Counted from the first letter of the stretch, positions 3,592 through 41,548 are shown. The stretch is 64,000 nt of DNA from Candidatus Magasanikbacteria bacterium RIFOXYD2_FULL_41_14 (GCA_001784475.1 MFRE01000022.1:44234-108233); one strand, 5' to 3'. A program made the numbers and translations. The notes: a model not told the origin generated them from the sequence alone.

Positions 3592-5751
3592 GTGATAAAA
3601 TATCGGTATAATTTTATGAGCGTTAAATTTAACTTTTTTCAGAATATTAAATCAATCTTAAAATTTTTTTTTGGAGTTGCCATTTTTGCGGTAATTCTTG
3701 TTTGGTTTTATTCTGATGCCAAACCGATTTGGCAAAATCCACGCATACCACCGCAAATTCAAACCGCGCAGGCGGTTACTTGGTATAATACCAGTTGGTT
3801 ATATCGAAAAACAATTACGATTGATTACACCAAGGTTTCTACCACTTTGGCAAATTTTCCAGTAATGGTGAGTACGACTGATGCTAATTTAGTAGCTTAT
3901 GCGTCTTCTACTGGCGCTGATATTTTGTTTACTGATTCAAGTGGTACCAAATTAAATCACGAAATTGAAAGTTATACCAGCGCTACCGGTAAGTTAATCA
4001 CTTGGGTGAAGGTGACGAGCTTGTCTAATTCGGCAAATACTATTCTTTATATGTATTATGGCAATACGGGGGCAGCTGATCAGCAAAATATTACGGGGAC
4101 ATGGGATTCAAATTATGTGGGCGTATGGCACATGAAAGAAAATCCGTCCGGTTCGGCGCCCCAGATGAAAGATAGCACGACTAATGCCAATCATGGCACT
4201 ACTCAAGGTTCAATGCCTTCCGGATCCTTGGTAAACGCGCAGATTGGCGATGGTTTGGATTTTAATGGTTCCAGTTATTATGTCTCTCTTCCGGTTACAT
4301 CCTCGCTTAATATCACCGGGGCGATTACTGTTGAGACCTGGGTTTACGCGGATGCTCTTTCGTCGGCTAGAAGGTTTGTGTCTAAAAACAACACCGTAAC
4401 CAAATCTTGGGAACTTAATTTTGAATCAGCTGTTGGTGGTTTAACTACCATGAGAGTTTTTGATGGCGGAACAATAAAACGTACGCAAGAAGCGGCAGCA
4501 ATGACGGTCGGATCTTGGTTCCATTATGTTGGTGTATTTGATCCCAGCACTGCCGTGATAATTTATAAAAACGGCTCACAAAGCGGAGCTCTAACTTCCG
4601 GAATTCCGGCAGCGCAGAACGACAATCCCAATATCGCGGTATTATTTGCTCGCAGTCCCTATGCTGGCTGTTTAAATTGTTATTTAGATGGCAAAATGGA
4701 TGAAGTGCGCGTTTCCAATGTGGCCCGCTCCGCCGGTTGGATTTTAACCGAATATAACAATCAATATTCACCGTCGACCTTTTATAGTATAGAAAGTACA
4801 GCACAAACCCCACCATTTTATGATCAAATTTATTATAAATTTTTTAATAATACTGATTCTACTGATGTTGGTTTAAAACTGGCGAACCAAAATTTACCAG
4901 CTACTTTATCGTCCGCTGGCGACCCGTTCCGTTTGCGCTTGGGTTTGCATGTAACCGGCAGTCAAATAGACGCTAGTGGCCAAAGTTTTAAATTACAGTT
5001 TGCGGAAAAATCAGGGGATTGTGACGGCACTTTTTCCGGTGAAAGTTATGCTGATGTAACCGGAGCGACCGTAATTGCGTATTATGATAATGCCACCCCT
5101 AATGATGGTGATAGTTTAACTATAAACGCGGGTGACCCAAATATTGGTAATAATGTGATTGAACAGACATATGAAGAGGCCAATAATTTTACCAATTCCG
5201 TGGGCGCAATCGCAATCGGCGAGGAAGGTTTGTGGGATTTTTCTTTATACGATAATGGCGCTACCGCCAATACGTCATATTGTTTGCGGTTAATTAAATC
5301 AGATGGTAATAATATTGATAGTTATACCGAAATACCGGAAATAATCACTGCGTCTGGTGTGTCGCCGATAGTGTCGGTGTCGGTTCAAGATGGCATTATT
5401 AATTATGGGTATTTGCCCGTTGGTTCCAGTACTACCACGATTGCCGTTGCAGATTCTCAAACGGTTACTAACGATGGTAATGTGGATATAGATTTGGGTA
5501 TCAAAGGTTCAACGTCCACGCCGGGCAATTGGACGCTGGGTTCGCAGGCAGGGGCAGACCAATATGTCCATGAATATTCGGTTGACGTCGGTGACACTTG
5601 GGTGCCACTTACTGCCGATTATCAACTTTTGGTTCCGGGAGTGCCGCCAGATGCCGGCGGTGTTATTGATTTTAGAATTCAAGTGCCAAGTTCAACTTCG
5701 GATTATAGCACGCAAAATGTTGATATTACTATTTTGGCGGTTCAGTCATAG
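3592..5751 (+). CDS. large secreted/membrane-anchored protein: N-terminal TM/signal, DUF2341-like region, concanavalin-A/LamG-like lectin region, C-terminal ~130-aa beta-rich module
   Basis: 719 aa. WYNTSWLYRKTITIDYTKVSTTLANFPVMV is typical of DUF2341. The middle part matches LamG/ConA-like glucanase-fold proteins. The start may instead be the second Met at 3616. Confidence 0.55.
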   Translation: MIKYRYNFMSVKFNFFQNIKSILKFFFGVAIFAVILVWFYSDAKPIWQNPRIPPQIQTAQAVTWYNTSWLYRKTITIDYTKVSTTLANFPVMVSTTDANLVAYASSTGADILFTDSSGTKLNHEIESYTSATGKLITWVKVTSLSNSANTILYMYYGNTGAADQQNITGTWDSNYVGVWHMKENPSGSAPQMKDSTTNANHGTTQGSMPSGSLVNAQIGDGLDFNGSSYYVSLPVTSSLNITGAITVETWVYADALSSARRFVSKNNTVTKSWELNFESAVGGLTTMRVFDGGTIKRTQEAAAMTVGSWFHYVGVFDPSTAVIIYKNGSQSGALTSGIPAAQNDNPNIAVLFARSPYAGCLNCYLDGKMDEVRVSNVARSAGWILTEYNNQYSPSTFYSIESTAQTPPFYDQIYYKFFNNTDSTDVGLKLANQNLPATLSSAGDPFRLRLGLHVTGSQIDASGQSFKLQFAEKSGDCDGTFSGESYADVTGATVIAYYDNATPNDGDSLTINAGDPNIGNNVIEQTYEEANNFTNSVGAIAIGEEGLWDFSLYDNGATANTSYCLRLIKSDGNNIDSYTEIPEIITASGVSPIVSVSVQDGIINYGYLPVGSSTTTIAVADSQTVTNDGNVDIDLGIKGSTSTPGNWTLGSQAGADQYVHEYSVDVGDTWVPLTADYQLLVPGVPPDAGGVIDFRIQVPSSTSDYSTQNVDITILAVQS

Positions 5752-5789
5752 TGGTGCTGTGGATAAGTACGCCCGCGCGCGGGGGGGGG

Positions 5790-5818
5790 TTGGAGATAAA
5801 AAAGTTATGTGGTATAAT
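5790..5818 (+). promoter_or_regulatory. sigma70-like promoter (TTGGAG-17-TGgTATAAT) preceded by a G9 tract
   Basis: -35 at 5790-5795, extended -10 TGGTATAAT at 5810-5818, G9 homopolymer at 5781-5789. Confidence 0.5.
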
Positions 5819-5848
5819 ATAGTTGTTAATTATTTAAATTTATTTTTT

Positions 5849-6343
5849 ATGAAAAATAAAAAATTGGATTTAGTTATAGGCGTGTTATTTGTGGTAGCGC
5901 TTGCGTTTGGGGTGTCGGCGCAAGGGGCTGATACCGGCACGGTATCAGCGACAGTAACAGTTCAAAATGTTTCATTAACTGTTTCCGATGGCACTGTTGC
6001 TTATGGCACACAATCAGCCGGTGCTATGACGAGCACGTTACTTACCGGAGATATCCAGACAGTTACTAACAATGGTAATATAACAGAAAATTTTAACATC
6101 AAAGGCCAAGATTCCGCCAACTGGACACTGGCTTCATCTAGTAGCACCGACCAGTATACCCACCAATTTTCCACTACGACTGGTTCCTCTTGGACTTCTC
6201 TAACTACCAGCTATGCCACTTTGGACACAAGCAAAGCGGCTGCCGCCACTTCTACTTTTGATTTGCGCATTTATGTGCCTTCCGCTTCCACCAACTATAC
6301 TTCTCAGAGTGTTGATGTTACCGTACAGGCGGTAGCCAGTTAA
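5849..6343 (+). CDS. small secreted protein (signal peptide), paralogous to the C-terminal module of the 3592-5751 protein
   Basis: ATG at 5849 gives MKNKKLDLVIGVLFVVALAFGVSAQG (signal peptide). The mature part aligns with the last ~130 aa of the upstream protein (TVTNDGN...NWTLxS...DQY.H....DVT.QAV). The listed ORF 5564..6343 is an upstream extension through the intergenic region. Confidence 0.55.
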   Translation: MKNKKLDLVIGVLFVVALAFGVSAQGADTGTVSATVTVQNVSLTVSDGTVAYGTQSAGAMTSTLLTGDIQTVTNNGNITENFNIKGQDSANWTLASSSSTDQYTHQFSTTTGSSWTSLTTSYATLDTSKAAAATSTFDLRIYVPSASTNYTSQSVDVTVQAVAS

Positions 6344-6353
6344 TAACTTTTTT

Positions 6354-6950
6354 ATGCGTAAAATCATAGTAATGGTTGGATTGATAAGTTTAGCTTTGAC
6401 TATACCACTTTTTGTTTCGGCGCGGGTGGGTGTGGGTGTTGGCGCTGGTAAAATTCAAATGACTGAACAATTAAAACCGGGCAAAACTTACGAATTGCCG
6501 GTTTTGCCGATTTTAAATACCGGTGATGAATTTTCCGCGTATGAAGCTACCGTGGAATATCATGAAAATATTCCCCAAATGTGGCCGAAGCGCGAGTGGT
6601 TTAAATTTACTCCTCAAACTTTTGAATTAGAACCGGGGCAGGTAAAAAATGTAAAAGTGGAATTGAGTTTGCCGGTAAACGCCAAGCCGGGAGAATACCG
6701 TGCTTATTTAGAAGGTCATCCGGTTAAAAAAAGTCGCGCTACCGGCGGGGCGGCGGTGGGTGTGGCTGCGGCGGCTGATTTGCGTTTTACGGTGGTGCCG
6801 GCCAATATATTGGCTGCTTGGTATTATAAAATAACAACTTTTTACAGTCGCTATCATCCTTACGATACGATCGGGTTGGCTTTGCTCGCGTCCGCTTATC
6901 TATTTTATTGGGTGAAAAAGAATTTTAAGTTTCAGATCGCGAAAAAGTGA
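6354..6950 (+). CDS. secreted protein with signal peptide and C-terminal TM anchor, unknown function
   Basis: 198 aa. N-terminal MRKIIVMVGLISLALTIPLFVSA, C-terminal hydrophobic helix plus a basic tail. Confidence 0.5.
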   Translation: MRKIIVMVGLISLALTIPLFVSARVGVGVGAGKIQMTEQLKPGKTYELPVLPILNTGDEFSAYEATVEYHENIPQMWPKREWFKFTPQTFELEPGQVKNVKVELSLPVNAKPGEYRAYLEGHPVKKSRATGGAAVGVAAAADLRFTVVPANILAAWYYKITTFYSRYHPYDTIGLALLASAYLFYWVKKNFKFQIAKK

Positions 6951-7016
6951 CATCCAACTCGCGCCGGATGTTATCCTGAGGAGTCATAGTGACGAAGGAT
7001 TTATTATCTTCTGTAC

Positions 7017-8087
7017 ATGAAAAGATTTTTGGTTCAATTCATTTTGTTTGTTTCACCCCTACTGGTTATATCATTAGGGGCTTTTTTTTCTTATCCTCAT
7101 CTGGTTTCGGCCGTGTCCACGGCGACGGTAGTCGCAACCATTAAAATAGAAGTTTGTGGTGATGGTGTAAAAGATGATAGTGAAGAGTGCGATGGCAGTG
7201 ATTTGAACGGCCAAACCTGTACCAATTTTAGTGGGTTCACGGGTGGAACATTATCCTGCTCGGCCGGATGTTTGTTTGCTATCACTGCTTGTACCAGTGG
7301 CGGAACTTCTCCCGGTGGTGGGGGCGGAGGAGGGGGCGGTGGCGGTATTCCACCAACGGAACCGGTAATTACGAGCGCGGTGTTTGTCGGTCGCGCTTAT
7401 CCGGGCAGTTTGGTAACACTTTTAAAAGATGGCCAAATAGCCATACGCACCGTGGCCGGACCGGACGCTAATTTTCAAATGACTTTGGCCGGACTATCTG
7501 CTGGCAATTATATTTTTTCTTTGTACACGACGGATAATATTGGTCGGCAATCATCGGCTTTGACTTTTCCGGTTTTTGTTACTAGTGGCGCGACTACCCG
7601 TGTTTCTGGAATTTTTTTAGCGCCGACCATTGCGGCTGATAAAAGTGAAGTAAAACGCGGAGACACTTTGTCTATTTTTGGCCAGTCTTTACCGCAAAGC
7701 GAAATTACGGTACAAGTGAATTCCACGCAAGAATTTTTTGCTAAAGCCAGAGCCGACAAAGACGGTGTGTATTTATATAATTTAGATACGGCATTTTTGG
7801 AAATCGGCGATCATAGCGCGCGTTCCAAATCCACGGTCGCGAACGAAATTAGCGCTTATAGCGATCGGATTGCTTTTAAAGTCGGGACAAAATCAGTGAA
7901 TGAAGCGGTGGATACAACTTATAAAAAAGCGGACTTAAACCGCGATGGTAGTATTAATTTGGTGGATTTTTCCGTGGCCGCATATTGGTATAAACGGAAG
8001 TCGCCGCCGGCGAAATATGATTTAAATAACGATGGCAAAATTGATTTGGTGGATTTTAGTATCATGGCCTACTACTGGACAGGATGA
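7017..8087 (+). CDS. secreted Cys-rich protein with G11 linker and C-terminal dockerin-type repeats
   Basis: Signal peptide. Cys-rich CGDGVKDDSEECDGSDLNGQTC segment. Poly-Gly run. Two Ca-binding-loop repeats, DLNRDGSINLVDFSVAAYWY and DLNNDGKIDLVDFSIMAYYW, typical of type I dockerin. Confidence 0.6.
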   Translation: MKRFLVQFILFVSPLLVISLGAFFSYPHLVSAVSTATVVATIKIEVCGDGVKDDSEECDGSDLNGQTCTNFSGFTGGTLSCSAGCLFAITACTSGGTSPGGGGGGGGGGGIPPTEPVITSAVFVGRAYPGSLVTLLKDGQIAIRTVAGPDANFQMTLAGLSAGNYIFSLYTTDNIGRQSSALTFPVFVTSGATTRVSGIFLAPTIAADKSEVKRGDTLSIFGQSLPQSEITVQVNSTQEFFAKARADKDGVYLYNLDTAFLEIGDHSARSKSTVANEISAYSDRIAFKVGTKSVNEAVDTTYKKADLNRDGSINLVDFSVAAYWYKRKSPPAKYDLNNDGKIDLVDFSIMAYYWTG

Positions 8088-8104
8088 GGGATTAAATAAT
8101 TAAC

Positions 8105-8177
8105 TGTCATTCCCGCGAAAGCGGGAATCCAGACGTTGGTCGTCGGCCATTGGATCCCCGCTTTCGCGGGGATGACA
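8105..8177. repeat. MITE-like inverted-repeat element (GTCATTCCCGCGAAAGCGGGAATCC...GGATCCCCGCTTTCGCGGGGATGAC)
   Basis: Terminal inverted repeats, two internal hairpins and a GGATCC core. Same family as the copies listed below. Confidence 0.6.
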
Positions 8178-8237
8178 AAAATATTCCCGCCAGAGCGGGT
8201 CGGCCTATGGCGGAAAAATGACAAATAAAATATCAAA

Positions 8238-9137
8238 ATGAAAAATGACAATGTAAAATTTAAAATTAATAAATTACGAAGTGCAGTATTAGTATTTGTA
8301 GTTGCGTTTTTATTTGTTGCGCCTGTGTCGGCCGCATCATTGTATTTTAATTCCCCAAAAACCGATTACAAAGTCGGTGAACAATTTACCGCCAGTGTTT
8401 TGGTGGATTCGGTTGATGAAGCGATTAACGCGTTTGAAGGAAAATTGGTTTTTTCTGATGATCAGTTGGAAGTGAAAGAAATTTTTATTGGTAATTCAGT
8501 GATAAATTTTTGGATTGACACTCCAAAAGTTGGAAATGGCGAAATTCAATTTTCTGGAATTGTTCCAGGCGGATTTCAGGGTGATAAAGGGTTGTTATTT
8601 TCAGCTGTATTTTTAGTTAATTCGATAGGCACGGGGGAAATTAATTTTTCTGATTATAAATTATTATTAAATGATGGTCGGGGGACGGCGGCGTTAACTG
8701 TGGTCGCAAATTTAAAATTAAACATTTTACCGGTTGCGCCCGGAACGGTTGCGCCTGAATATATGCCATTTCCCGATGGCACTTTACCCGAAGAATTTAC
8801 ACCAGAATTGACGCGTTCGTCGGGTGAATTTAATAATCAGTGGTTTTTAGTGTTTGCGACTCAAGACAAGGGTTCGGGGATTGATTATTATGAGGTGTGC
8901 GAGGGCAATCAAGATAATTGTGAAAAAACCGACAGCCCGTATATTTTAAAAGACCAAAATTTAGTTGGTAAAATTTTTGTGAAAGCGGTTGATAAGCGTG
9001 GCAACGGGCGAATGGTTGTTTTAGAACCGCCGGGCGGTTTGGTGTGGTATGAAAAATATCAAAATTATGTTATACTATTCTTAGTATTAGTTGCTTCTGT
9101 TTTGTTAGTCCTCAAAAAATATGCGCGGAGGGTTTAA
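8238..9137 (+). CDS. cohesin-like domain protein with signal peptide and C-terminal TM anchor
   Basis: 299 aa. N-terminal ~140 aa beta-sandwich-like module (SLYFNSPKTDYKVGEQFTASVLVDS...GEINFS) resembles cohesin modules and is paralogous to the N-terminus of the next ORF. C-terminal YVILFLVLVASVLLVL helix. Confidence 0.45.
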   Translation: MKNDNVKFKINKLRSAVLVFVVAFLFVAPVSAASLYFNSPKTDYKVGEQFTASVLVDSVDEAINAFEGKLVFSDDQLEVKEIFIGNSVINFWIDTPKVGNGEIQFSGIVPGGFQGDKGLLFSAVFLVNSIGTGEINFSDYKLLLNDGRGTAALTVVANLKLNILPVAPGTVAPEYMPFPDGTLPEEFTPELTRSSGEFNNQWFLVFATQDKGSGIDYYEVCEGNQDNCEKTDSPYILKDQNLVGKIFVKAVDKRGNGRMVVLEPPGGLVWYEKYQNYVILFLVLVASVLLVLKKYARRV

Positions 9138-10923
9138 ATATGGATTGGCGGTTTTATTTTTTCTTTTATGTCCGGCCTCGGCGCGCGCGGCCAGTTTATA
9201 TTTATCGCCAGCATCCGGTTCGTACGCTTTAAATAGTAATATCGCGGTGAATGTTTACGTTAGTAGCGCCGACAAAGCGATGAACGCCGTTTCGGGCGTG
9301 TTGGATTTTCCGGCGGATAAATTACAGGTGACCTCCATATCTAAATCCGGTTCGGTAATTAATTTATGGGTGGCAGAGCCGTCTTTTTCCAATTCTGCCG
9401 GTACAGTTAATTTTGAGGGTGTTGCTTTAAACCCCGGATATACTGGTACTAGTGGTAAAATTATTACCATAAATTTTAAAGTTAAAGCCACTGGCGCGGG
9501 TTTGCTTAAGTTTTTATCTGGTTCGGTGTTAGCCAATGATGGTCAGGGGACAGAAATATTATCTGGCACCGGCAATGCGCAGTTTGACTTAGGACAAGGA
9601 AAACCAGTGCCGCCACCACCTGTGACCGTTGTTCCGGCTGGTAAACCAGCGGCTCCGACTGTAACTTCTCTCACTCACCCTGACCAGAATAAATGGTATG
9701 CTGTTAAAGATGCTAAGTTTACTTGGAATTTATCAAGTGATATCACTAAAGCACGATTATTAGTGGACAGCAAAGCGGATACAGCTCCCGCAGTAGTGTA
9801 TTCGCCGGCTGTATCTGAAAAAGAAATGCCGGATATTGATGATGGTGTTTGGTATTTTCATGTCCAGTTATATAATAGTCATGGTTGGGGCGGTATTACT
9901 AATTATCGTTTTCAAATTGATTCTGTCGTACCGACCGATTTTTCAGTGGTTGAAATTAAGCGTGTTGATTCAAGCGAACCGCGTGTTGTTTTTTCCCTAT
10001 CGGCAATTGACGTTGGTTCTGGTATTGATTTTTATGAAATTCGGATTGACAGTCAGGAAGCGATTGTTTGGAAAGATGATGGCACTCACCGATATGAAAC
10101 TCCGACCCTTGATCCTGGTAAACATATTTTAACAGTGCGTGTCTTTGATCGTGCTGGCAACGCCGCATTAGAGTCCGTTGATTTTGAGGTGGTACCATTA
10201 GATAAACCAGTTATTGAGAATTATCCGAACAGTCTGAGGACGGGCGAGCCGTTGGTAATAATTGGTAGGACATATTCCAATAGTCAAGTGACAGGTTATC
10301 TCCAACGCGGTGCGGCCGAACCAACCATTCTGACGATAGCAAGCGACGAAACGGGGCGGTTTATATTTGCGCCGAGCGAAGAATTACGTTCTGGCACTTA
10401 CTTGGTTTGGTTCCAAGTGGCTAAAGATAATGGAGCCCGCAGCGAAGTCACGAAAAAATTTGCTATTATTGTTTCCGAGCCAGCTATTTTACGTATCGGA
10501 TCATTGGCAATTAATGTTCTAGCCGTAATTATTCCTCTTTTTGCGCTTGTGCTATTACTTGTAGGCGTGATTTGGTTTGGATTTTATCGCTTCCGTATTG
10601 TCAGTCGTAATTTAAAAGCAAAGACAGCTGAAGCCAGTTTGGCGCGCAAAGCTTTTGAAGCATTGACTGTTCATTTGTCGGCTGAAATAAATATGTTTGA
10701 GCGCACGGCTTTAAAACGCAAATTAACCTTAGAAGAAGAAGATGTTTTGGCCCAAATGACGAAAGATTTGGCTGAGGCCAATAAAATTGTGGGCAAGAAA
10801 GCAATGGCACCAGTGCCTGGACGTTTTTCCATTCGTGAATCAGAGGTAGAAAAGGCAAAAATGGCGCCTTGCGCTCGTCGGGCGACAAAAATAGCCAAAA
10901 GTACCAAAAAACCGCTAATTTAA
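9121..10923 (+). CDS. large cohesin-like surface protein with Pro-rich linker, Ig/Fn-like repeats, C-terminal TM anchor and cytoplasmic tail
   Basis: 600 aa. N-terminal module SLYLSPASGSYALNSNIAVNVYVSS...NFKVKATGAG is similar to the previous ORF. PVPPPPVTVVP linker. TM helix LAINVLAVIIPLFALVLLLVGVIWFGF. Overlaps the upstream ORF by 17 nt. Confidence 0.45.
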   Translation: MRGGFKYGLAVLFFLLCPASARAASLYLSPASGSYALNSNIAVNVYVSSADKAMNAVSGVLDFPADKLQVTSISKSGSVINLWVAEPSFSNSAGTVNFEGVALNPGYTGTSGKIITINFKVKATGAGLLKFLSGSVLANDGQGTEILSGTGNAQFDLGQGKPVPPPPVTVVPAGKPAAPTVTSLTHPDQNKWYAVKDAKFTWNLSSDITKARLLVDSKADTAPAVVYSPAVSEKEMPDIDDGVWYFHVQLYNSHGWGGITNYRFQIDSVVPTDFSVVEIKRVDSSEPRVVFSLSAIDVGSGIDFYEIRIDSQEAIVWKDDGTHRYETPTLDPGKHILTVRVFDRAGNAALESVDFEVVPLDKPVIENYPNSLRTGEPLVIIGRTYSNSQVTGYLQRGAAEPTILTIASDETGRFIFAPSEELRSGTYLVWFQVAKDNGARSEVTKKFAIIVSEPAILRIGSLAINVLAVIIPLFALVLLLVGVIWFGFYRFRIVSRNLKAKTAEASLARKAFEALTVHLSAEINMFERTALKRKLTLEEEDVLAQMTKDLAEANKIVGKKAMAPVPGRFSIRESEVEKAKMAPCARRATKIAKSTKKPLI

Positions 10924-10932
10924 CATAAGCTC

Positions 10933-10970
10933 AATCTGTCAATACCCCTAGTATTGACAGATTTTGTTTT
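10933..10970 (+). terminator. rho-independent terminator (13-bp perfect stem AATCTGTCAATAC/GTATTGACAGATT plus T-tract)
   Basis: Read directly. Follows the stop of the 9121-10923 gene. Confidence 0.6.
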
Positions 10971-12347: not shown

Positions 12348-12491
12348 TATAAAGATCGCGTTGCTAAATACCCCCGAATCAATCGGGGGTATTTAATTGG
12401 CATAAATTGACAAAATCATGTTTTTAGTGTAGGATTTGTTAATAGAGATATAGAAATTAATCTTAAATTATTACTATTCAATATTTCAATT

Positions 12492-14324
12492 ATGCGTAAT
12501 TTTTTCAAGAATTTTTTAATGATTTTTTTGGTTCTGGTCTTAGTAGCCGGAGTTTTGTCTATGACTCAAAATGGGACCAGTAAAAAATCAGAGGAAATAG
12601 ATACTGCAAAACTGGCCCAAGAAATTAACGCCGGACAAGTTAAAAAAGTGACTGTTGCCGGTGATTCGTTGACAGTAGAGCTGCAGGATACCGACGCCCC
12701 TAAACAAACCCTTAAAAAAGAACCAACCGAATCGTTTGGTGAACTTATGAAAAATTATGGTGTTACCGACGAGGCACGCCAGAGTTTAGCGGTGGAAATA
12801 AAAGATGAAAGTGGTTGGAAATTTTGGATGATGAATTTATTGCCAATAATTTTGCCTCTTGTTATCATCATCGGGTTTTTGTATTTTATGACCAGAAGCG
12901 CGCAGGGTATGAACAATAAAGCAATGGGCTTTGGGCAAAGCAATCCGCGTCAAGCTGATAGCCAAGATAAAGATAAAAAAACTTTCAAAGATGTGGCCGG
13001 AGCGGTTGAAGCCAAAGAGGAATTATCTGAAGTTGTTGATTTTTTGAAAGATCCGAAAAAGTTTTCAGTAATGGGGGCAAAAATTCCCAAAGGTGTACTG
13101 CTCATGGGCAATCCAGGTGTGGGTAAAACTCTTTTTGCCAAAGCGGTGGCCGGAGAAGCGGGTGTGCCATTTTTTCACATGTCGGGTTCGGAGTTTGTGG
13201 AAATGTTTGTGGGTGTGGGTGCATCACGCGTGCGTGATTTGTTTGCTAAGGCTAAAAAGGCTGCTCCGGCGATTGTGTTTATTGATGAAATTGATGCGGT
13301 CGGCCGCCGACGTGGTGCCGGTTTAGGTGGAGGGCATGATGAGCGCGAGCAAACTCTAAATCAAATATTAGTTGAAATGGATGGCTTTGAGCCAAATTTG
13401 GGTGTAATTGTAATCGCAGCCACTAACCGCCATGATGTTTTGGATCCGGCCTTGCTCCGCCCCGGTCGTTTTGACCGGCGTGTTACGATTGATTTACCGG
13501 ACATCCGCGATCGCGAAGAAATTTTAAAAATTCACGCGGCTAATAAGCCATTGTCTAAAGAGGTATCGCTTAATCGGTTGGCACAGCGCACGCCTGGTTT
13601 TTCTGGAGCGGATTTGGCCAATCTTTTGAACGAAGCAGCGATTTTGGCAGTGCGACGCAATAAAAAAATCATTGATGAAATTGAAGTGTTAGAATCAGTA
13701 GAAAAGGTATTGCTTGGGCCAGAACGCAGAAGCCGAATAATTTCGGATAAAGACAAAACCATGACCGCCTATCACGAAGCCGGTCATGCTGTTGTGGGGT
13801 ATTTTATGCCTAACTGCGATCCCGTGCGTAAAGTATCTATTATCTCTCGTGGTTCAGCCGGTGGTTATACTTTAAAAATGCCTAGTGAAGACAAGCATTA
13901 TCATACCCTCACCCAGTTTAAAGATGAGATGGCAATGATGATGGGTGGTTATGTAGCCGAGAAAATGATTTACGGCAATGATGAGATTTCCACTGGTCCA
14001 TCGTCTGATTTGCGTAATGCTACCAGTTTAGCTCGTGAGATGGTGACGGCTTATGGTATGAGCGACAAATTAGGTCCGCGTACTTTTGGCAAAAGTGACG
14101 ACATGATATTTTTGGGGCGCGAAATTCACGAACAAGTTGACTATAGTGATAAAACCGCGGAAATGATTGATGCTGAAGTGTTGCATTTGATAAATGAAGC
14201 TCGCGAACGAGCGGAAAAAATGTTGGCGGCCAAACGTCCAGAAATGGAAAAATTAGTAGCCGCGCTTTTGGAGAAGGAAACTATTGAACAGGAAGAAATT
14301 GTGGTGGTATTGGGAGAGAAATAA
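12492..14324 (+). CDS. ftsH: ATP-dependent zinc metalloprotease FtsH
   Basis: N-terminal TM, Walker A GNPGVGKT, second region of homology, HEAGHA zinc motif. 610 aa. Confidence 0.95.
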
Positions 14325-14591: not shown

Positions 14592-15560
14592 ATGCGCGAA
14601 CCAAATTATCGTCAAGCCTTTCTGCATTCTTGGCAGATTGTGGCAGAGCACAAAATTTTGTGGGTTTTTGGTTTACTATCCGCCTGTTTGGGTCAGTGGG
14701 GGCTAGGGCATTTTTTAGGTGGGCTTAATTTAGCTAGTGTAAATAGTTTAGCATCAGATGGAGACATGCTGTCATTTTGGCACGCAGTTTTGGGTGCCGG
14801 ACATGTCAGTGGAATGTCGGCCATATTTGTCGCTTGGCTTATACTTATTGTGGTCGCTTTAGTAGTTTTATTTATTTTTGTGGCAGTTGTTTCCCGTGGG
14901 GCACTCATTGCGGCTGTAGGCCATTGGTTTGCCAAAGATGGCAAAGTGCCGACCACTCTTGCTTGGCGCTATGGTGTAAAGAATTTTTGGGAGATTTTCT
15001 TTTTGACTATTTTAGCACGCGCATTTGAAGCGGCGCTGTTACTTTTGGCAATACCAGTATTTGTGTATCATACCGGCACGACCGCTGGTGCATTTGTGCA
15101 AGCGCTCTACGGCGCTGTTACTTTGGCTGTCGGCTTGATTGTGGAAGTGTTAACAATCTTTGCTTCCGGGTATGTTGTGATTGACGGAGCAAGCGTGCCA
15201 ACGGCGATTTCGCGTGCTTGGCGACTGCTTGCCCGCCATGTTTTGATAGTACTAGAATTGGGAATATTATTAGTTGTTATTAATTGTTTATTGGTAATTG
15301 GCGTTTTACTATCTTCTTTTGTCGTGTTTATTCCGGCAATTTTAATTTGGTTAGTCGCGGTTGTCACTGGTTGGAACGCCTTGATTGGAGCCGGCGTCAC
15401 TTTGGCGATAATCTTATTTATAATAATTCTCGTTTTATCAGCCGGCATATTTAATGCGTTTAACACCAGCGCTTGGATGTATTTATTTATTAAAATGCAT
15501 CGCGAAAATTATGTGGGCTGGTTACTCAATAGAATAAAAAGTTTGTTTGTAAGAAAATAA
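14592..15560 (+). CDS. polytopic integral membrane protein (about 7 TM), unknown function
   Basis: 322 aa, repeated long hydrophobic stretches. Preceded by an extended -10 TGGTATAAT at about 14548. Confidence 0.5.
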   Translation: MREPNYRQAFLHSWQIVAEHKILWVFGLLSACLGQWGLGHFLGGLNLASVNSLASDGDMLSFWHAVLGAGHVSGMSAIFVAWLILIVVALVVLFIFVAVVSRGALIAAVGHWFAKDGKVPTTLAWRYGVKNFWEIFFLTILARAFEAALLLLAIPVFVYHTGTTAGAFVQALYGAVTLAVGLIVEVLTIFASGYVVIDGASVPTAISRAWRLLARHVLIVLELGILLVVINCLLVIGVLLSSFVVFIPAILIWLVAVVTGWNALIGAGVTLAIILFIIILVLSAGIFNAFNTSAWMYLFIKMHRENYVGWLLNRIKSLFVRK

Positions 15561-15565
15561 TTGCC

Positions 15566-17284
15566 ATGCCATTTCCTTCTATTAATGATTTGCTTAAAAA
15601 AGATGACGTCCCAAAAGCGCCCGATGTTGAGATTGATTGGAATAACCCGGTTTCCAAGTTTAATAAAGGAATAAAAGACATTGATATTCGCGCGAAGGAG
15701 AAAGAAACCAAGCAGATTGCCACAGCATCGGGTATGCCTTATATTAATTTGGATGAGACCCCAATCTCTTCCGAAGCTTTAAAGATTGTTTCAGAGTCAG
15801 TGGCACGTGAAAAGAAATTGGCCTGTTTTTATTTTTCCGCTTCTGAATTGCGTCTGGCTTCCACCAAACCTTTGCCGGCCGATGATGATTTTGTTTATCA
15901 ACTGGGTGAGCGCCATCATTGCAAGGTGGCAACATATCTGGTTTCGGAGCATGGTTTTGAACGAGTATTAAGATTATATTCCACTTTACCGATCGTGTTG
16001 CCTGTCACCAAAGACATTAACATCACCGACGAAGAATTGGCAAAGTTTAGCGCGGAAATAAGTACCATTGCTAGTTTGGCCGAGCATTTTAAAATTGTTT
16101 CCATTACTGATATTTTGTCGCTCATGATTGCGGCGGCTTTACGTTTAAATGCTTCGGATATTCATGTTGAAGCGGAAGAGAACACAATTAAGGTGCGCTA
16201 TCGGGTTGATGGTGTTTTGCACGAGGTGGCGCAATTACCGCGTGAACAATGGGCTAGATTTATTTCGCGTATTAAATTATTGGCCGGTTTAAAAATTAAT
16301 GTTGTTAATAAGCCACAAGACGGTCGGGTGTCATTAAAATTATCACATGAAAGTTTGGATGTGCGTGTATCTACTTTGCCAACCACTTATGGCGAGAGTG
16401 CGGTTTTGAGAATTTTATTTAGTGGCAATAAGGGGGTTAGTTTTGATGATTTAGGAATTCGGGGCGAGGCCTATGTTCGCCTAAAGCGTGAGATGGAGAG
16501 GCCTAACGGCATGATTATCACTACCGGTCCGACTGGCTCTGGCAAAACAACGACTTTGTACGCTATTTTACGTTCTTTAAATAAACCGGGGGTAAACATT
16601 GTCACCATGGAAGATCCGGTAGAAATTAAAATGGAGGGCATAAACCAAAGCCAGGTAGATGTGGAACATGGCTATACTTTTGCCAAGGGCCTGCGCAGTA
16701 TCTTGCGTCAGGATCCGGATATTTGTATGGTCGGCGAAATTCGTGATTTAGAATCAGCGGAAATTGCGGTGCAGGCAGCGCTCACCGGACATTTGATGTT
16801 ATCAACCGTGCATACCAATAGCGCTGCTGGCACGGTACCGCGCTTATTGTCTATGGGGGTGAAGCCATTTTTGTTGGCGCCGGCTTTAAATGCCGTGATG
16901 GGGCAACGTTTGGTGCGTCGCATTTGTGAACATTGCGTGGTAGAAGAGGAGTTGAGCTCGGAAATATTAGAACGAGTCGGGAAAATAATTAACAGTTTGC
17001 CGTCAGACGCGAAGGCCTCTATTAAAGATCGTCCTCTTACTTTTTATAAAGGCAAAGGATGTGCGAAGTGTAGTGGTTTGGGCTATAAGGGTCGGGTTGG
17101 TATTTATGAGTTGTTTACCATGAATAAAGAAATTGAAAGTGTGATTTTGGCGGATAACGCTTCGGAATATACTATTGCTGAAATGGCTGTTAAAGATGGC
17201 ATGATTACAATGGCCCAGGATGGAATTTTGAAAGCAATGGATAAAATTACTACTATTGAAGAAGTATTTAGAGTGTCGGAGTAG
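15566..17284 (+). CDS. pilB: GspE/PilB-family secretion ATPase (type IV pilus/type II secretion assembly ATPase) with N-terminal GspE_N domain
   Basis: 572 aa. Walker A GPTGSGKTTT, Asp box, Walker B DPDICMVGEIRD, His box, C-terminal tetracysteine CEHC...CAKC. Confidence 0.85.
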   Translation: MPFPSINDLLKKDDVPKAPDVEIDWNNPVSKFNKGIKDIDIRAKEKETKQIATASGMPYINLDETPISSEALKIVSESVAREKKLACFYFSASELRLASTKPLPADDDFVYQLGERHHCKVATYLVSEHGFERVLRLYSTLPIVLPVTKDINITDEELAKFSAEISTIASLAEHFKIVSITDILSLMIAAALRLNASDIHVEAEENTIKVRYRVDGVLHEVAQLPREQWARFISRIKLLAGLKINVVNKPQDGRVSLKLSHESLDVRVSTLPTTYGESAVLRILFSGNKGVSFDDLGIRGEAYVRLKREMERPNGMIITTGPTGSGKTTTLYAILRSLNKPGVNIVTMEDPVEIKMEGINQSQVDVEHGYTFAKGLRSILRQDPDICMVGEIRDLESAEIAVQAALTGHLMLSTVHTNSAAGTVPRLLSMGVKPFLLAPALNAVMGQRLVRRICEHCVVEEELSSEILERVGKIINSLPSDAKASIKDRPLTFYKGKGCAKCSGLGYKGRVGIYELFTMNKEIESVILADNASEYTIAEMAVKDGMITMAQDGILKAMDKITTIEEVFRVSE

Positions 17285-17415: not shown

Positions 17416-18558
17416 ATGATTGTACGCCACAGTGAAACTAACGCTCCTTTTGAGCCATCGGTGCGTTTTTACCGCACTATTGCCTTGTCATTTTTGGCAG
17501 TTACCATTATTCTTTTAGGAACAATTATTTTTGTTACCTCTAAAAAAGCGACTCTAATAATCACCGCTAAAGAAGATGTAAAAAGCGCAAACTTGAGTGT
17601 GGGACTGGGCAAGGATAAAACCGATGATGCGGTGCGCGGTATTGTTACCTCCACCGTCTTTAGTTGGACGGAGAAATTTTTTCCTACTACTTATAAATCC
17701 GAAGACAGTGTCGCCGTCGGTTCACTTGTGATTTATAACAAAAGTAATGCCAGCCAGCCCCTAGTAAAAACCACACGCTTTTTAACACCAAACAATATCA
17801 TGTTTCGCTTAACCGACGACGTAGTTGTACCGGCGAATGGTCAAATTACCGCTGAAGTTTACGCAGATCAAATTGGCGCAAATAGCGAAATTGGGCCTAG
17901 CCAGTTTGTTATTCCTGGTTTATCTGCCGACAGACAAAAATTTGTTTATGCCGAAAGTGCGGAAAATATGAAAGGCGGTAGCAATAAGGTGGGTGTTTTG
18001 ACCGACTCTGATTTACAATCCGCTCGAACTATTTATATTGAAAAGTTAAAGCAAAATTTAATAAAGCAGTTACCCCCTTATCAGGATGGCTTTGAAGCAG
18101 TGGTGTCGGTAGTAAGTCAGCAAGTTGATGCCGATTATGCCGTGGGGGATTCAGTAGCCGAGTTTAATTTGTCTGGTTCCAATACGGCGGTAGTGGCGTG
18201 GTACAAAAGTGATGATTTAAAATCAATGATTGCTAAAGAAATTAACAGTAAGGTTGACGTCAGTTTGGAAAAAGTGGTGGCAGTAATCGGAGATCCGCTT
18301 GTCACTTTGACGTCATATGATTTGGCAAAAAATACCGCTCAATTAGCAGTTAGCCAAGAAGCTAAAGTAACCTTGGCAGTGGATGCTGATAAATTGTCAC
18401 CCGGGCGTTTTTTGGGACAGACCAAAGAAGAAATTGAACGCTATGTGCTTGGTTTAGAGCATGTATCAGCGGTAGATGTTAGTTTTTCGCCGTCCTGGGC
18501 CAGAAAATCGCCTACTTCAGTTGATCGTATTAAGGTGGTTGTAAAAAGTATAAAATAA
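17416..18558 (+). CDS. bitopic membrane protein (N-terminal TM, large extracytoplasmic domain), unknown function
   Basis: 380 aa. TM helix IALSFLAVTIILLGTIIFV. Confidence 0.45.
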   Translation: MIVRHSETNAPFEPSVRFYRTIALSFLAVTIILLGTIIFVTSKKATLIITAKEDVKSANLSVGLGKDKTDDAVRGIVTSTVFSWTEKFFPTTYKSEDSVAVGSLVIYNKSNASQPLVKTTRFLTPNNIMFRLTDDVVVPANGQITAEVYADQIGANSEIGPSQFVIPGLSADRQKFVYAESAENMKGGSNKVGVLTDSDLQSARTIYIEKLKQNLIKQLPPYQDGFEAVVSVVSQQVDADYAVGDSVAEFNLSGSNTAVVAWYKSDDLKSMIAKEINSKVDVSLEKVVAVIGDPLVTLTSYDLAKNTAQLAVSQEAKVTLAVDADKLSPGRFLGQTKEEIERYVLGLEHVSAVDVSFSPSWARKSPTSVDRIKVVVKSIK

Positions 18559-39124: not shown

Positions 39125-41548
39125 ATGAATGCTCATAATTACAAAAAAGATTTTGGCGGTAAAACGGTTTTAATTCTTAGTTCCGGCACAGAACGCAACC
39201 GCTTTGTTTTTAATGTTGTCAATCGTTTGGGTTTAAAAACAGTTGTGCTGAACGACCGTGTTAATTGGAGTAAGCGTTTAGCAGATGATTTTATTCTGGC
39301 AGATAATTTTAATCACGCGCAAGTTTTAAATGTCCTGCGTTCTTATTTTTTAAAACACAAAGTGGCCGGTGTTGTTACTTTTTCCGAAGAAAATGTTGAA
39401 CTTCTAACTAAAGTTTGTCATGAATTTAATTTTATTGGCAACGGTCGCACTACTGCCGGTTACTTGCGTAATAAATACGCGATGCGGCAACGGTTCGCGG
39501 CTTGGCAGATTGACCAGCCAAACTTCGCGCTGGTTACGAACGATAGTGAATTGCAGATTGCCATTGCCAAGGTTGGCTTTCCAGCGATTATAAAACCGGT
39601 GGCTGGCACTGGCGGCGATTTTGTAGTTAAGGTTACTGATAAACATAATGCTCAAGAAATTTTTGATTTTATTAAAAAAAATGCCACTCCTAAATTTGAT
39701 CCCATATTTTTTCAAAATCAATATCAATTTTTGTACGAAAAATATTTACCGGGGGCCGAGGTTAGCGTGGAGGCGGTAACTCAAAACGGTCAAACTGATG
39801 TGGTAGCGATTGTGGATAAGCAGACCGGAGATGAGCCTTATTTTGTGGATTATAAACACAGTTTGCCTTCAAAATTAGATAGCGAAGAGCAAGAGATGGT
39901 AGAACGGCTAGTGTTTGCGGCGCATCGCGCTTTGGGGATTATGAACGGGATAACTCATACGGAGATTATAATGAGAAAAGACCGGCCGGCAATAATTGAG
40001 GTGGCCGGACAGATGGGCAGTCAATATATTTGGGATGGGGTGCGTACTACCTGGGGAGTTGATTTGGTGGAGCAGGCGTTTCGGGTTGCTTTGGGGCTGC
40101 CTATTACTACTCATCAACGGGCTTTGGAGCCAAAAAAATACTGGGCTTGTCAATATTTAGAAATTGAAAAATCAGGGATTGTGGCGGCCATTCACGGTGC
40201 CGATGAGGTGGCCAAGATAAAAGGCGTAAGAGATTTGTATTTAGACAAAGAAGTTGGTGACGCGGTTTTAGTTCCGCCCTTAAGTTTTGACACGATTGGT
40301 TGGCTAGCGGCAGAAGGGGAGAGCCATTCGGAGGTGGATGATGTGGTGAGCGCAGGAGTGGATAAATTAGAAATCCAAACCATTTCTTTTGATGCTGAAT
40401 CATCTGTTGGCCAAAGTGAACGTCGGAATAATTTTTCATCGGCGTTTGTAATGAAGAAAAAATATCTGGCGCAGGCACGGGTGGAAAAATTGCGCCGTTT
40501 GGATATTAAAAATTTGCGCGGGTTGCACGTGGGTATTTTAGGCAATGTTTATAAAAATAATTCTAAAACCACGGAAAAAAATGAAATCGCCGGCGAACTT
40601 ATGTCGGTTGGCTACGGCGTTCAGAAAGTTTTGCAAGAGCGTGGTTACCGAGTGAGCTTTTTTGATATGAATGAAAGCCCTTTGCCTTTGGAAAAAATCC
40701 AAAAATCAGGTGTGGATATTATTTTTAATGTTTGTGAGCGTATTAATGATTCTAGCTTGCTTGAACCACACGCTGCGGCGGTTTTGGATATTTTACAGGT
40801 GCCTTATACCGGTTCCAACCCCTTAACTTTGGCTTTTTGTATTGATAAAATTAAAGTAAAAAAATTATTGTCTTATCATAATATTCCTACTGCCAAATTT
40901 GATGTGGCCTACACCATGGACGATAAAATTGACAGTGAGTTACGCTATCCGCTGATTGTTAAACCGGCTAACACTGACAATAGTATTGGTATTACCAATA
41001 AATCAGTTGTTAAAAATATAAAAGAATTAAACACGCAACTTCACGAGGTGATAGTGAAAGCCGGTCGGCCGGCGCTGGTGGAAGAATATATTGAAGGCGA
41101 CGAGTTTGATGTCTCTATTATTGGTAATGAGCAAGGTTTGGAAGTTTTACCATTATCGCGTTCTATTTTTGATAAAATGCCGAAAGGTTATTGGCATATT
41201 TATCCGTTTGAATCAAAGTTTGGTGATGTTCCCGCTTATGATCAAATTAAATTGCAACGGCCAGCGAAGGTGGTCACTAAATTATCTAAATTAATCACTG
41301 AAATTGCGATTGATACTTATAATATTCTAGGGGCGCATGATTACGCGCGGGTGGAGATGCGGATAGATAAAGATCACAATCCATATGTGATTGAGTTAAA
41401 CCCTAATCCGTCTATTGGCGCTGATACTTGCACTGCAAAATGTGCGGCTTTGGCTGGTTATGATTATGGTGATTTTTTGGAGTTGATTTTAAGTTCAGCC
41501 ATTAAACGTTATCAAAATAGGCCACCTTTTTCTCATTTGAGCAATTAA
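39125..41548 (+). CDS. tandem ATP-grasp ligase fusion; C-terminal half is D-Ala-D-Ala-ligase-like
   Basis: 807 aa. First half FPAIIKPVAGTGGDFVVKV... is ATP-grasp. Second half resembles the Ddl N-terminal domain (HVGILG...) plus ATP-grasp (PLIVKPAN...YARVEMRIDKDHNPYVIELNPNPSIG). Confidence 0.6.
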   Translation: MNAHNYKKDFGGKTVLILSSGTERNRFVFNVVNRLGLKTVVLNDRVNWSKRLADDFILADNFNHAQVLNVLRSYFLKHKVAGVVTFSEENVELLTKVCHEFNFIGNGRTTAGYLRNKYAMRQRFAAWQIDQPNFALVTNDSELQIAIAKVGFPAIIKPVAGTGGDFVVKVTDKHNAQEIFDFIKKNATPKFDPIFFQNQYQFLYEKYLPGAEVSVEAVTQNGQTDVVAIVDKQTGDEPYFVDYKHSLPSKLDSEEQEMVERLVFAAHRALGIMNGITHTEIIMRKDRPAIIEVAGQMGSQYIWDGVRTTWGVDLVEQAFRVALGLPITTHQRALEPKKYWACQYLEIEKSGIVAAIHGADEVAKIKGVRDLYLDKEVGDAVLVPPLSFDTIGWLAAEGESHSEVDDVVSAGVDKLEIQTISFDAESSVGQSERRNNFSSAFVMKKKYLAQARVEKLRRLDIKNLRGLHVGILGNVYKNNSKTTEKNEIAGELMSVGYGVQKVLQERGYRVSFFDMNESPLPLEKIQKSGVDIIFNVCERINDSSLLEPHAAAVLDILQVPYTGSNPLTLAFCIDKIKVKKLLSYHNIPTAKFDVAYTMDDKIDSELRYPLIVKPANTDNSIGITNKSVVKNIKELNTQLHEVIVKAGRPALVEEYIEGDEFDVSIIGNEQGLEVLPLSRSIFDKMPKGYWHIYPFESKFGDVPAYDQIKLQRPAKVVTKLSKLITEIAIDTYNILGAHDYARVEMRIDKDHNPYVIELNPNPSIGADTCTAKCAALAGYDYGDFLELILSSAIKRYQNRPPFSHLSN

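Follow-up and report, generated by a model that had tools for sequence, protein, structure and literature searches.

Within the 64-kb stretch of DNA analysed here (the window), positions 3592-10923 hold six co-oriented genes on the + strand, g1 to g6, whose products are all exported or membrane-anchored, as an earlier note on this DNA had said. The source organism, tiny and probably host-dependent, is a Patescibacterium (CPR), the nearest locus being from Candidatus Magasanikbacteria. The six genes are a single operon present throughout Patescibacteria, and recurrence of identical gene order in dozens of species-level genomes means that it is not a chance arrangement. Housekeeping genes surround the operon here, and its flanking genes vary from locus to locus. 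Just 5′ of g2, a consensus scan yields a putative promoter-like site (TGGAGA, 16 nt, TG-TATAAT; 5791..5818, +), a match to consensus only, and the g1-g2 spacer is nearly identical in a related species (alignment with L009, L083 and L084). There is no sign of phase variation at the G9 tract 5′ of g2, tract length being equal in three near-identical environmental contigs. A terminator-like hairpin, with a 13-bp stem and then a T run (10933..10963, +), ends the operon and overlaps a perfect sigma-70-type promoter of the next gene, rpsA.

The product of g1 (719 aa; 3592..5751, +), delineated by Pfam domains and paralogy with g2, begins with a long leader that contains a hydrophobic helix (residues 18-40). 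An alternative start, ATG at 3616, is possible, and the long helix may remain in the membrane unless cut at a conserved AxA some 20 residues downstream. Next come DUF2341 (nt 3913-4101; Pfam 44.3 bits, cut-off 23.4) and a LamG-like lectin fold (nt 4264-4743; Laminin_G_3 74.2 bits, cut-off 27.6), confirming the domains first proposed, followed by a middle domain and a C-terminal g2-like module (nt 5371-5748) without the N-terminal strand of g2. Identification of g1 as TafC (NCBIfam NF052521) was rejected, as the score, 30.5 bits, is far below the cut-off of 410 and comes from the LamG region only.

The small secreted g2 protein (164 aa; 5849..6343, +) has its true start at ATG 5849; the ORF list gives a longer ORF starting at 5564. 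Its signal peptide (residues 1-26) is followed straight away by a candidate donor strand, ADTGTVSATVTVQN (residues 27-40, nt 5927-5968), and then by an Ig-like pilin-type module (residues 41-164), whose supposed paralogy to the C-terminal module of g1 is secure (42% identity to g1 residues 594-719, E 3e-24). When the AlphaFold model of g2 is compared by Foldseek with the whole PDB, E ≤ 1e-3 is reached only by seven structures of FimA, from which the rod of chaperone-usher pili is mainly built. They include monomers of the wild type, two chains that are explicitly self-complemented and two variants reversed at the N-terminus, and the best match is 5lp9 (E 7e-6, probability 1.0). In chaperone-usher pili the donor strand pairs with the last strand of the acceptor, and the most conserved 12-residue windows of g2 are its N-terminal strand (0.90) and its last strand (0.88).

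Among the best 150 matches of an exhaustive g2-family profile search there are 78 short proteins, nearly all of which (75) align from the profile start, and 66 long proteins that resemble g1 in carrying the module at the extreme C-terminus behind variable heads. In g1-like proteins homology to g2 starts only at 'VSVSVSDG', and inspection of the 66 long proteins shows the TATVTATVTVQN strand in none. The heads differ among genomes, with lectin-like DUF2341/LamG, subtilase, DUF7483 and glycine-rich domains represented. When clustered at 50% identity the g2 family forms no fewer than 1,543 clusters, with loci from all major classes of Patescibacteria; the databases searched hold no informative name for it, just 'hypothetical protein' and one evidently spurious 'Wsc4p'. 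Identity of g2 between classes of the phylum is 50-60%, and such conservation is unusually high for an exposed pilin, which counts against its being part of a fibre. A very widespread family with a highly conserved core, encoded among housekeeping genes, could instead contribute to a structural part of the envelope, e.g. a connector of the wall or an S-layer to the membrane, that serves cell integrity and not adhesion. We consider this highly improbable, given that the g1-type heads are variable and swapped (lectin-like, protease, DUF7483) in a manner typical of surface interaction modules.

For g3 (6354..6950, +), the AlphaFold model (pLDDT 85) has a signal peptide (residues 1-23), an Ig-like sandwich (residues 32-147) and a C-terminal helix with membrane anchor (residues 152-190, nt 6807-6923), followed by a basic tail, in keeping with the beta-rich anchored protein that had been expected. 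The conserved N-terminus, RVGVGVGAGKI (nt 6423-6461), is near-invariant in the mature proteins of the family (IGVGVGxGKI) and disordered in the monomer model. Structural matches of g3 are PapD-like, with WxLIP among the top, and one annotation source labels a homolog a PapD chaperone. Profile searches of PDB sequences gave no meaningful match for either g2 or g3, and hhalign no signal of a relationship between the two.

The WxL clusters of Lactobacillales and Bacillales consist of a small WxL, a large WxL and a WxLIP protein (PMC10599100) and have a three-gene logic identical to that of g1-g3. The operon could on that analogy encode a display platform with no polymer, where g2 and the C-terminal module of g1 would bind the wall non-covalently, g3 would act as the WxLIP, capturing these modules at the membrane and stabilising them by an inserted strand, the LamG head would be single, and the cohesin-dockerin pair described below would be a second tether. 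This is unlikely in our estimation. No recurrent Pfam family was found among 68 g2 members at E ≤ 10 (no WxL, TasA/Peptidase_M73 or DUF1102), and g3, with its single Ig domain, does not match DUF916 or DUF3324 even at a permissive threshold (E ≤ 1). Only one Trp-x-Leu motif (W-T-L) is conserved, whereas a WxL domain has two; the significant Foldseek matches of g2 are FimA pilins, and WxL clusters are without cohesin and dockerin.

The g4 protein (7017..8087, +), identified by Pfam and by PDB sequence match, starts with a signal peptide, after which come an N-terminal strand, VSTATVVATIKIE (nt 7113-7151), that aligns with the N-terminus of g2, a six-Cys module (nt 7152-7295), a G11 linker (residues 100-110, nt 7314-7346), an Ig-like Big_6 region (nt 7380-7574 and beyond; 31.2 bits) and a dockerin of two Ca-loop repeats (residues 304-356, nt 7926-8084). 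Its earlier description as Cys-rich with two dockerin repeats stands, but these do not lie directly behind the G11 linker, some 190 residues of Ig-like domain intervening. Pfam Dockerin_1 (dockerin type I, PF00404) scores 30.8 bits with the whole protein and 38.2 bits with the tail alone (cut-off 22.9); the tandem Ca-binding loops are DLNRDGSINLVD and DLNNDGKIDLVD, and the best PDB sequence match is dockerin 2y3n_B. Across the family, 28 of 36 tails match Dockerin_1. The short-form tails, a hybrid of the pattern FDxNGDGxI...E ... CDxNxDxxC, score higher against calmodulin EF-hand pairs than against dockerins, and a combined profile of long-form and short-form tails matches calmodulin at E 5e-17; the g4 tail of the window itself scores top as a dockerin. 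At the other end of the protein, the mature N-termini of g4 and g2 align at equal distance from the signal peptide (hhalign, 9 columns, E 0.025). The motif concerned, which is short and was defined after both families had been seen, is present in 96% of g2 and 69% of g4 proteins, against 1.5% of other ORFs.

Cohesin-like modules are found in the last two genes. The g5 protein (8238..9137, +), assigned by paralogy with g6, family profile and hydropathy, has a signal peptide, a cohesin-like module (nt 8337-8732) with a small beta domain behind it, and a C-terminal membrane helix (nt 9045-9113; hydropathy). The first 17 nt of g6 (9121..10923, +) overlap the end of g5, and its product comprises a signal peptide, a cohesin (nt 9190-9600; Pfam), a Pro-rich linker, Big_13/OmpL47-type beta domains (a weak match to NCBIfam barrel_OmpL47), a membrane helix (nt 10504-10590; hydropathy) and a charged cytoplasmic tail of 110 aa (nt 10591-10920). 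Pfam Cohesin (PF00963) gives 25.4 bits with whole g6 and 29.4 bits with the module alone (cut-off 24.1); g5 on its own reaches only 13 bits. The two N-terminal modules are 34% identical (E 4e-21). Both the common module and the C-terminal anchors attributed to the pair hold. The HMM check suggested in the earlier note thus finds its cohesin in g6 and its dockerin in g4. A family profile of the cohesin-like modules retrieves only cohesins from the PDB (best E 5e-4), and for 14 of 21 family modules Cohesin is the sole family matched.

Conservation of the arrangement was examined in 71 distinct loci of Patescibacteria that include a short g2 gene. Next to g2 lies g3 in 68, with g4 as well in 57 and a cohesin protein in addition in 52; all five gene types are together in 35. 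Nine loci keep g2-g3 and have no adjoining g4 on the contig fetched despite enough room, implying either that the fibre can do without a cohesin-dockerin tether or that the genes for it lie at another site of the genomes concerned. The more conserved core is g1-g2-g3 and the cohesin-dockerin pair is the accessory half, which is why the earlier interpretation, centred on that pair, was only partly right; it had missed the resemblance of g1, g2 and g3 to a tip adhesin, a pilin and a chaperone or anchor of PapD-like kind. In all 49 loci compared (17/17 and 32/32) the type of the dockerin goes with that of the cohesin protein, and the two partners are kept together, good indirect evidence for binding between the g4 dockerin and the g5 and g6 cohesins, as predicted from sequence. 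That the pair is always retained or lost together, with co-varying types and with both domain assignments standing, would also suit a scaffold of g4 on g5/g6 as the functional unit, g1-g3 being co-expressed with it and physically unlinked. Such independence appears distinctly unlikely, since the fixed order of g4 and a cohesin gene after g2-g3 in 52 of the 71 loci, phylum-wide, argues for a joint function. In addition, the outer end of g4 offers a conserved strand and a Cys knot only, with no enzyme and no known binding head, and one dockerin faces two cohesins in the window.

The explanation that we favour, with moderate confidence, is that the six genes build a Sec-exported, usher-less, thin donor-strand surface fibre or short stalk that is tethered to the cytoplasmic membrane by cohesin-dockerin pairing. 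It most likely carries a sugar-binding tip, and a putative role in attachment to a host cell is plausible. Repeating or connecting subunits would be supplied by g2, the N-terminal strand of which (residues 27-40) would enter the fold of the preceding module. With no donor strand before its module, g1 could only accept a strand, and would be at the distal end, displaying a DUF2341/LamG lectin-like head that is exchanged in other genomes. Held in the membrane by its C-terminal helix, g3 would receive exported modules on its PapD-like Ig domain as a chaperone, and may serve as an anchor too. At the base, g4 would present its g2-like strand, then the disulfide knot, with the Gly linker and Ig domains spanning the wall and the Ca-binding dockerin plugging into the cohesins that g5 and g6 hold at the membrane. 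Donor-strand exchange, polymerisation and polymer length, the g4-g2 contact, cohesin-dockerin binding and host attachment are what we infer in this scheme.

Parallels to chaperone-usher pili (type 1 and P, with FimA/PapA, FimH/PapG and FimC/PapD) are partial. The modelled fold of g2 resembles FimA, and g1 is two-part like FimH/PapG, with a lectin-like head at the N-terminus and, at the other end, a pilin-type module lacking a donor strand. The PapD-like Ig fold of g3 recalls FimC/PapD, though it has one Ig domain rather than two and is membrane-anchored. Unlike those systems, there is here no usher, no outer membrane and an extra cohesin-dockerin pair; no gene for an usher-sized beta-barrel is in or beside the operon, and profile searches detect no sequence homology of g2 or g3 to chaperone-usher proteins.

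Beside these and the WxL clusters, the nearest precedent is the Pam system of Ca. Mycosynbacter amalyticus, itself a member of the CPR, for which usher-less donor-strand pili have been solved (2026 preprint, bioRxiv 10.64898/2026.03.03.709456). They involve Sec-exported Ig-fold subunits, PapD-like proteins with C-terminal membrane helices, an acceptor-only tip, PamT, and a membrane-anchored terminator, PamR, with an N-terminal strand; the pilins PamA and PamB (39 and 55 kDa) consist of two domains each and use the linker between these as the donated strand, two domains also make up PamC and PamD, and the pam operon lies beside ATP synthase genes, mainly in Saccharimonadia and Microgenomatia, with no mention of cohesin, dockerin or LamG in the text of the paper (bioRxiv 10.64898/2026.03.03.709456). 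Compared by description, a CPR origin, absence of an usher, Sec-exported Ig-fold proteins and a PapD-like membrane-helix protein are shared; joining by donor strands, an acceptor-only tip and a membrane-held end with an N-terminal strand would be shared as well. In contrast to the Pam pilins, g2 is single-domain with an N-terminal strand, and the 66 long proteins of its family that were inspected have no conserved strand before the module. PDB entries 25PZ and 25QA were not among the fold or sequence matches, probably because the copies of the PDB that were searched lack them. Among the matches listed for a search with a Saccharibacterial g2 homolog there was no Mycosynbacter protein, which does not show that such a homolog is lacking. 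Also pertinent are the Tafi fimbriae of archaea and further fibres of the donor-strand type, among them TasA and bundling pili (PMC11821415, PMC12337348). The Tafi tip protein, TafC, combines LamG with a subunit-like domain, the major subunits are small, and the terminator, TafF, is anchored in the membrane. The subunit-like domain of TafC is, however, N-terminal, and export of Tafi is by the Tat pathway, with a signal peptidase of their own, TafD, no counterpart of which is encoded within this operon.

A cellulosome-like frame, as proposed earlier, does not fit. The type-I-like dockerin with two Ca-binding repeats and the cohesins on cell-anchored proteins are shared features, but each anchor protein has one cohesin, the dockerin of g4 is the single one in the 64-kb window, there is no set of dockerin-bearing subunits or enzymes, no multi-cohesin scaffoldin and no glycoside hydrolase in the operon, anchoring is by a membrane helix and not by an SLH domain or sortase signal, and the pair is embedded in a pilus-like operon. 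The accompanying suggestion of a purpose other than cellulose degradation is upheld, no carbohydrate-active enzyme being involved. Cohesin-dockerin pairs reportedly do exist outside cellulose degradation, going by Peer et al. in FEMS Microbiol Lett in 2009. The dockerin protein SEML1_0315 of Southlakia epibionticum, essential by Tn-seq, was considered as a counterpart and set aside as a stand-alone 927-aa gene in another context; the supplementary data examined for this link hold no cohesin or dockerin Pfam entries. We found no published description of the present pilus-like and cohesin-dockerin combination.

Much of bacterial diversity belongs to Patescibacteria, most of which live attached to other cells, with the manner of attachment known for only a few cultured strains. 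Tentatively, and with more doubt than conviction, the operon may specify a second phylum-wide Patescibacteria pilus, an usher-less donor-strand fibre with interchangeable tips and a base adaptor that directs a pilin-like strand into the last subunit and a dockerin onto membrane cohesins. The base of such a pilus would be neither a sortase product nor a transmembrane pilin, and it would be the first example of pilus anchorage by cohesin and dockerin. The parts of the operon are small, soluble domains amenable to in vitro testing. If the model is true, the operon would identify stalk, anchor and swappable tips for host binding in a surface organelle general to Patescibacteria, the donor-strand principle of Pam pili would be extended, and cohesin-dockerin pairs would gain a structural role apart from cellulosomes.

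Six + strand genes occupy 3592-10923 of the window, and the earlier note's observation of these six is confirmed, far beyond chance. The first, g1 (3592-5751), has DUF2341 and Laminin_G_3 matches that both exceed Pfam cut-offs, and the last 126 residues of its product have a paralog in g2 (5849-6343, with 5849 the true start; 164 aa; 42% identity, E 3e-24). The product of g3 (6354-6950) carries a beta-rich domain between its signal peptide and a C-terminal anchor. In the g4 product (7017-8087), a six-Cys module and a G11 run are accompanied by Ig-like domains and by a dockerin that exceeds the Pfam cut-off, its best PDB sequence match also being a dockerin. The products of g5 (8238-9137) and g6 (9121-10923) have an N-terminal module in common (34% identity, E 4e-21) and each ends with a membrane helix; that the module is a cohesin is supported by Pfam in g6 and by a family profile that matches nothing but cohesins in the PDB. 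The genes are closely packed, with gaps of, in order, 97, 10, 66 and 150 nt, with the last pair overlapping by 17 nt. The block ends in a strong terminator-like hairpin (10933-10963), after which there is a perfect sigma-70-type promoter for rpsA, and the neighbors are housekeeping in character (a metallo-beta-lactamase-fold protein, rpsA, ftsH, a T2SSE ATPase and tRNA synthetases). The ATPase, of T2SSE/PilB type (15566-17284, 414 bits), is encoded 4.6 kb downstream of the operon, between genes for a polytopic membrane protein (14592-15560) and a 380-aa protein without a Pfam match (17416-18558). Elsewhere in the window, an 807-aa protein with two ATP-grasp units (39125-41548; D-Ala-D-Ala ligase C-terminus, ATP-grasp_4, LAL_C2) appears to be a fused double ligase.

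The six genes form an operon that is conserved among Patescibacteria. Homologs of g2, about 165-175 aa long and 50-60% identical, carry no Pfam domain; the named sources are Minisyncoccales, WS6, Uhrbacteria, WWE3 and Daviesbacteria. When 1.84 billion representative proteins were searched exhaustively with a profile, the g2 module turned up in 1,543 clusters at E <= 1e-3 and in 887 at E <= 1e-10. Scanning a single genome for each GTDB species yielded 76 loci, whose informative record titles are all Patescibacterial (Microgenomates and Parcubacteria groups, WWE3, WS6/Dojkabacteria and Saccharibacteria); the labels Gammaproteobacteria, Pseudomonadales, Bdellovibrionales or Kapaibacterium on some third-party assemblies are taken for placeholder or mistaken titles. 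To survey gene order, the six window proteins were used as queries against every ORF of the loci; the counts refer to 71 distinct loci that carry a short g2 gene. In 68 of the 71, g3 is directly 3' of g2; g4 accompanies the pair in 57 and a cohesin protein is present as well in 52, a long g1-type protein is within the fetched stretch in 45, all five gene types are found in 35, and nine have g2-g3 with no adjoining g4 despite room on the contig. Given these counts, and flanking genes that vary from locus to locus, the core is g2-g3 plus a g1-type protein, with g4 and cohesin being a frequent accessory pair. In a Minisyncoccales locus (L003), three small 23S_rRNA_IVP (PF05635) genes are in operon spacers, 5' of g1 (6663-6863), between g1 and g2 (9409-9753) and in the gap that separates g4 from the first cohesin gene (12405-12626).

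The nearest relative of the window locus is from a Candidatus Magasanikbacteria genome (L009). The g1-g2 spacer of the window (5752-5848), with a GC-rich palindrome CCCGCGCGCGGG, a G9 run, a promoter-like site directly 5' of g2 (5791-5818) and a leader, is, together with the g2 signal peptide, nearly the same in L009 (8906-9000), in contrast to the diverged mature proteins. The G9 run is equally long in three near-identical contigs and so gives no hint of phase variation.

The g1-g2-g3 core looks like a tip adhesin, a pilin and a PapD-like protein. The most conserved 12-residue window of the g2 family is the strand directly after the signal peptide (consensus A-x-TATVTATVTVQN, mean column identity 0.90), followed by the last strand (0.88); the acceptor's last strand is the one with which a donor strand pairs in chaperone-usher pili. 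Homology of g1-type proteins to g2 begins only at 'VSVSVSDG', directly past the N-terminal strand, and the sequence before it is variable. Among the best 150 representatives from the g2-module profile search are 66 long proteins, every one of which has the g2-like module at its extreme C-terminus; 46 of their matches begin at profile position 35 or later and the g2 N-terminal strand motif is absent from all 66 inspected, while 75 of the 78 short proteins match from the profile start. With a variable head and then what would be an acceptor-only pilin module, g1-type proteins are akin to FimH and PapG, the head being, depending on the genome, DUF2341 plus LamG (window and L009), DUF7483, subtilase plus PPC, a glycine-rich domain or nothing recognizable. 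As to g3, a homolog is labeled 'P pilus assembly chaperone PapD' in one source, and the sequence at the mature N-terminus, (R/K)IGVGVGxGKI, hardly varies across the family yet is disordered in the monomer model (pLDDT < 50), as would be expected of a segment acting on another protein.

The leader of g1-type proteins is unusually long, a hydrophobic helix being followed by a conserved (S)GWPxIWQNPxIPPxIxxAxA. It is present in the window (3592-3777, residues 1-62, where the stretch reads SDAKPIWQNPRIPPQIQTAQA with the AxA at its end about 20 residues past the helix), in L003 (6876-7060), in a further locus (L006, 8365-8560) and in numerous g1-type genes besides. Of 49 g1-type proteins, 13 have the strict core motif and about ten more show looser forms, while none was found in other ORFs of the 82 loci. 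The stretch may act as a dedicated signal for sorting or processing.

In all g4 homologs the signal peptide is followed by a conserved N-terminus (consensus VnATVKISVCGN), which runs into the six-Cys module, and then by a low-complexity linker and a C-terminal pair of Ca-binding loops. The long form, which occurs in Parcubacteria and the window, includes Ig domains and a canonical dockerin with a WTG end; with it come one to three proteins made up of signal peptide, cohesin and C-terminal membrane helix. In the short form the tail is divergent (FDxNGDGxI ... CDxNxDxxCxLxDFSILLYY), and the accompanying protein is a single one with three N-terminal membrane helices and then cohesin. Because g4 form and cohesin-protein type are completely associated (17/17 and 32/32 loci), which is indirect but good evidence, the dockerin and cohesin modules are probably binding partners. 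Pfam Dockerin_1 matches 28 of 36 family tails and EF-hand_1 matches 20. A joint tail profile (alignment A5) gives stronger matches to calmodulin EF-hand pairs (E about 1e-12 to 5e-17) than to solved dockerins, so that the short-form tail, with an EF-hand-like Glu at loop position 12 of its first repeat and two Cys in the second loop, is, as judged by sequence, borderline dockerin/EF-hand; the window's own g4 tail (7926-8084) scores best as dockerin. The earlier note's interpretation is partly supported: its cohesin and dockerin are real, but its cellulosome-like complex, in the sense of an assembly of many dockerin-bearing subunits, is unsupported since the window has a single dockerin, along with two cohesins, two g2 modules and one g3; the whole is better viewed as pilus-like or stalk-like than as a cellulosome analog. 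Past its membrane helix g6 has a highly charged, probably helical, cytoplasmic tail of 110 residues (491-600; 10591-10920), and long-form homologs of about 580-700 aa may also carry one; the tail could link the surface assembly to something intracellular.

A possible connection between the two halves comes from comparing the g2 and g4 family profiles, whose best local alignment is of the mature N-termini (tatVtATVT with s-tV-ATvk, 9 columns, E 0.025), at equal distance from the signal peptide in both families. A motif written from the two families, and so defined after the fact, is in 96% of g2, 69% of g4 and 1.5% of other locus ORFs; N-terminal kinship of g2 and g4 is suggestive only. In the favored reading, g4 would supply the last g2 module, or g1 itself, with a pilin-like strand, its Cys knot acting as a stop, its linker and Ig domains crossing the wall, and its dockerin fixing the assembly to the membrane proteins g5 and g6, while g3 would hold newly exported modules. 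Where a locus is without g4, g3 would double as anchor, like the membrane-anchored terminators PamR and TafF.

Among published systems, the Pam pilus of the CPR bacterium Ca. Mycosynbacter amalyticus (bioRxiv 10.64898/2026.03.03.709456) comes closest. By its published description it has in common with the assembly proposed here donor-strand exchange, the lack of an usher, membrane helices on PapD-like proteins, a tip that only accepts strands and a terminator anchored in the membrane. However, its pilins are two-domain and donate a linker strand, its chaperones are also two-domain, and the text of that paper has no mention of cohesin, dockerin or LamG. The three-gene logic recurs in WxL clusters of Firmicutes, and WxLIP ranks among the top structural matches of g3, though there is no WxL, DUF916 or DUF3324 signal. 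Archaeal Tafi are similar in their LamG-bearing tip and membrane terminator; g1 is not to be identified as TafC, the match being confined to LamG and far under the cut-off. Literature on cohesin or dockerin with Patescibacteria, CPR or Saccharibacteria yielded no description of the operon, and the essential dockerin protein of Southlakia is not a counterpart, being encoded by a different, stand-alone gene. The operon is a variation on two known themes, donor-strand fibers and non-cellulosomal cohesin-dockerin pairs, and the best view of the system is of a display organelle that resembles a pilus or stalk and is tethered by cohesin and dockerin.
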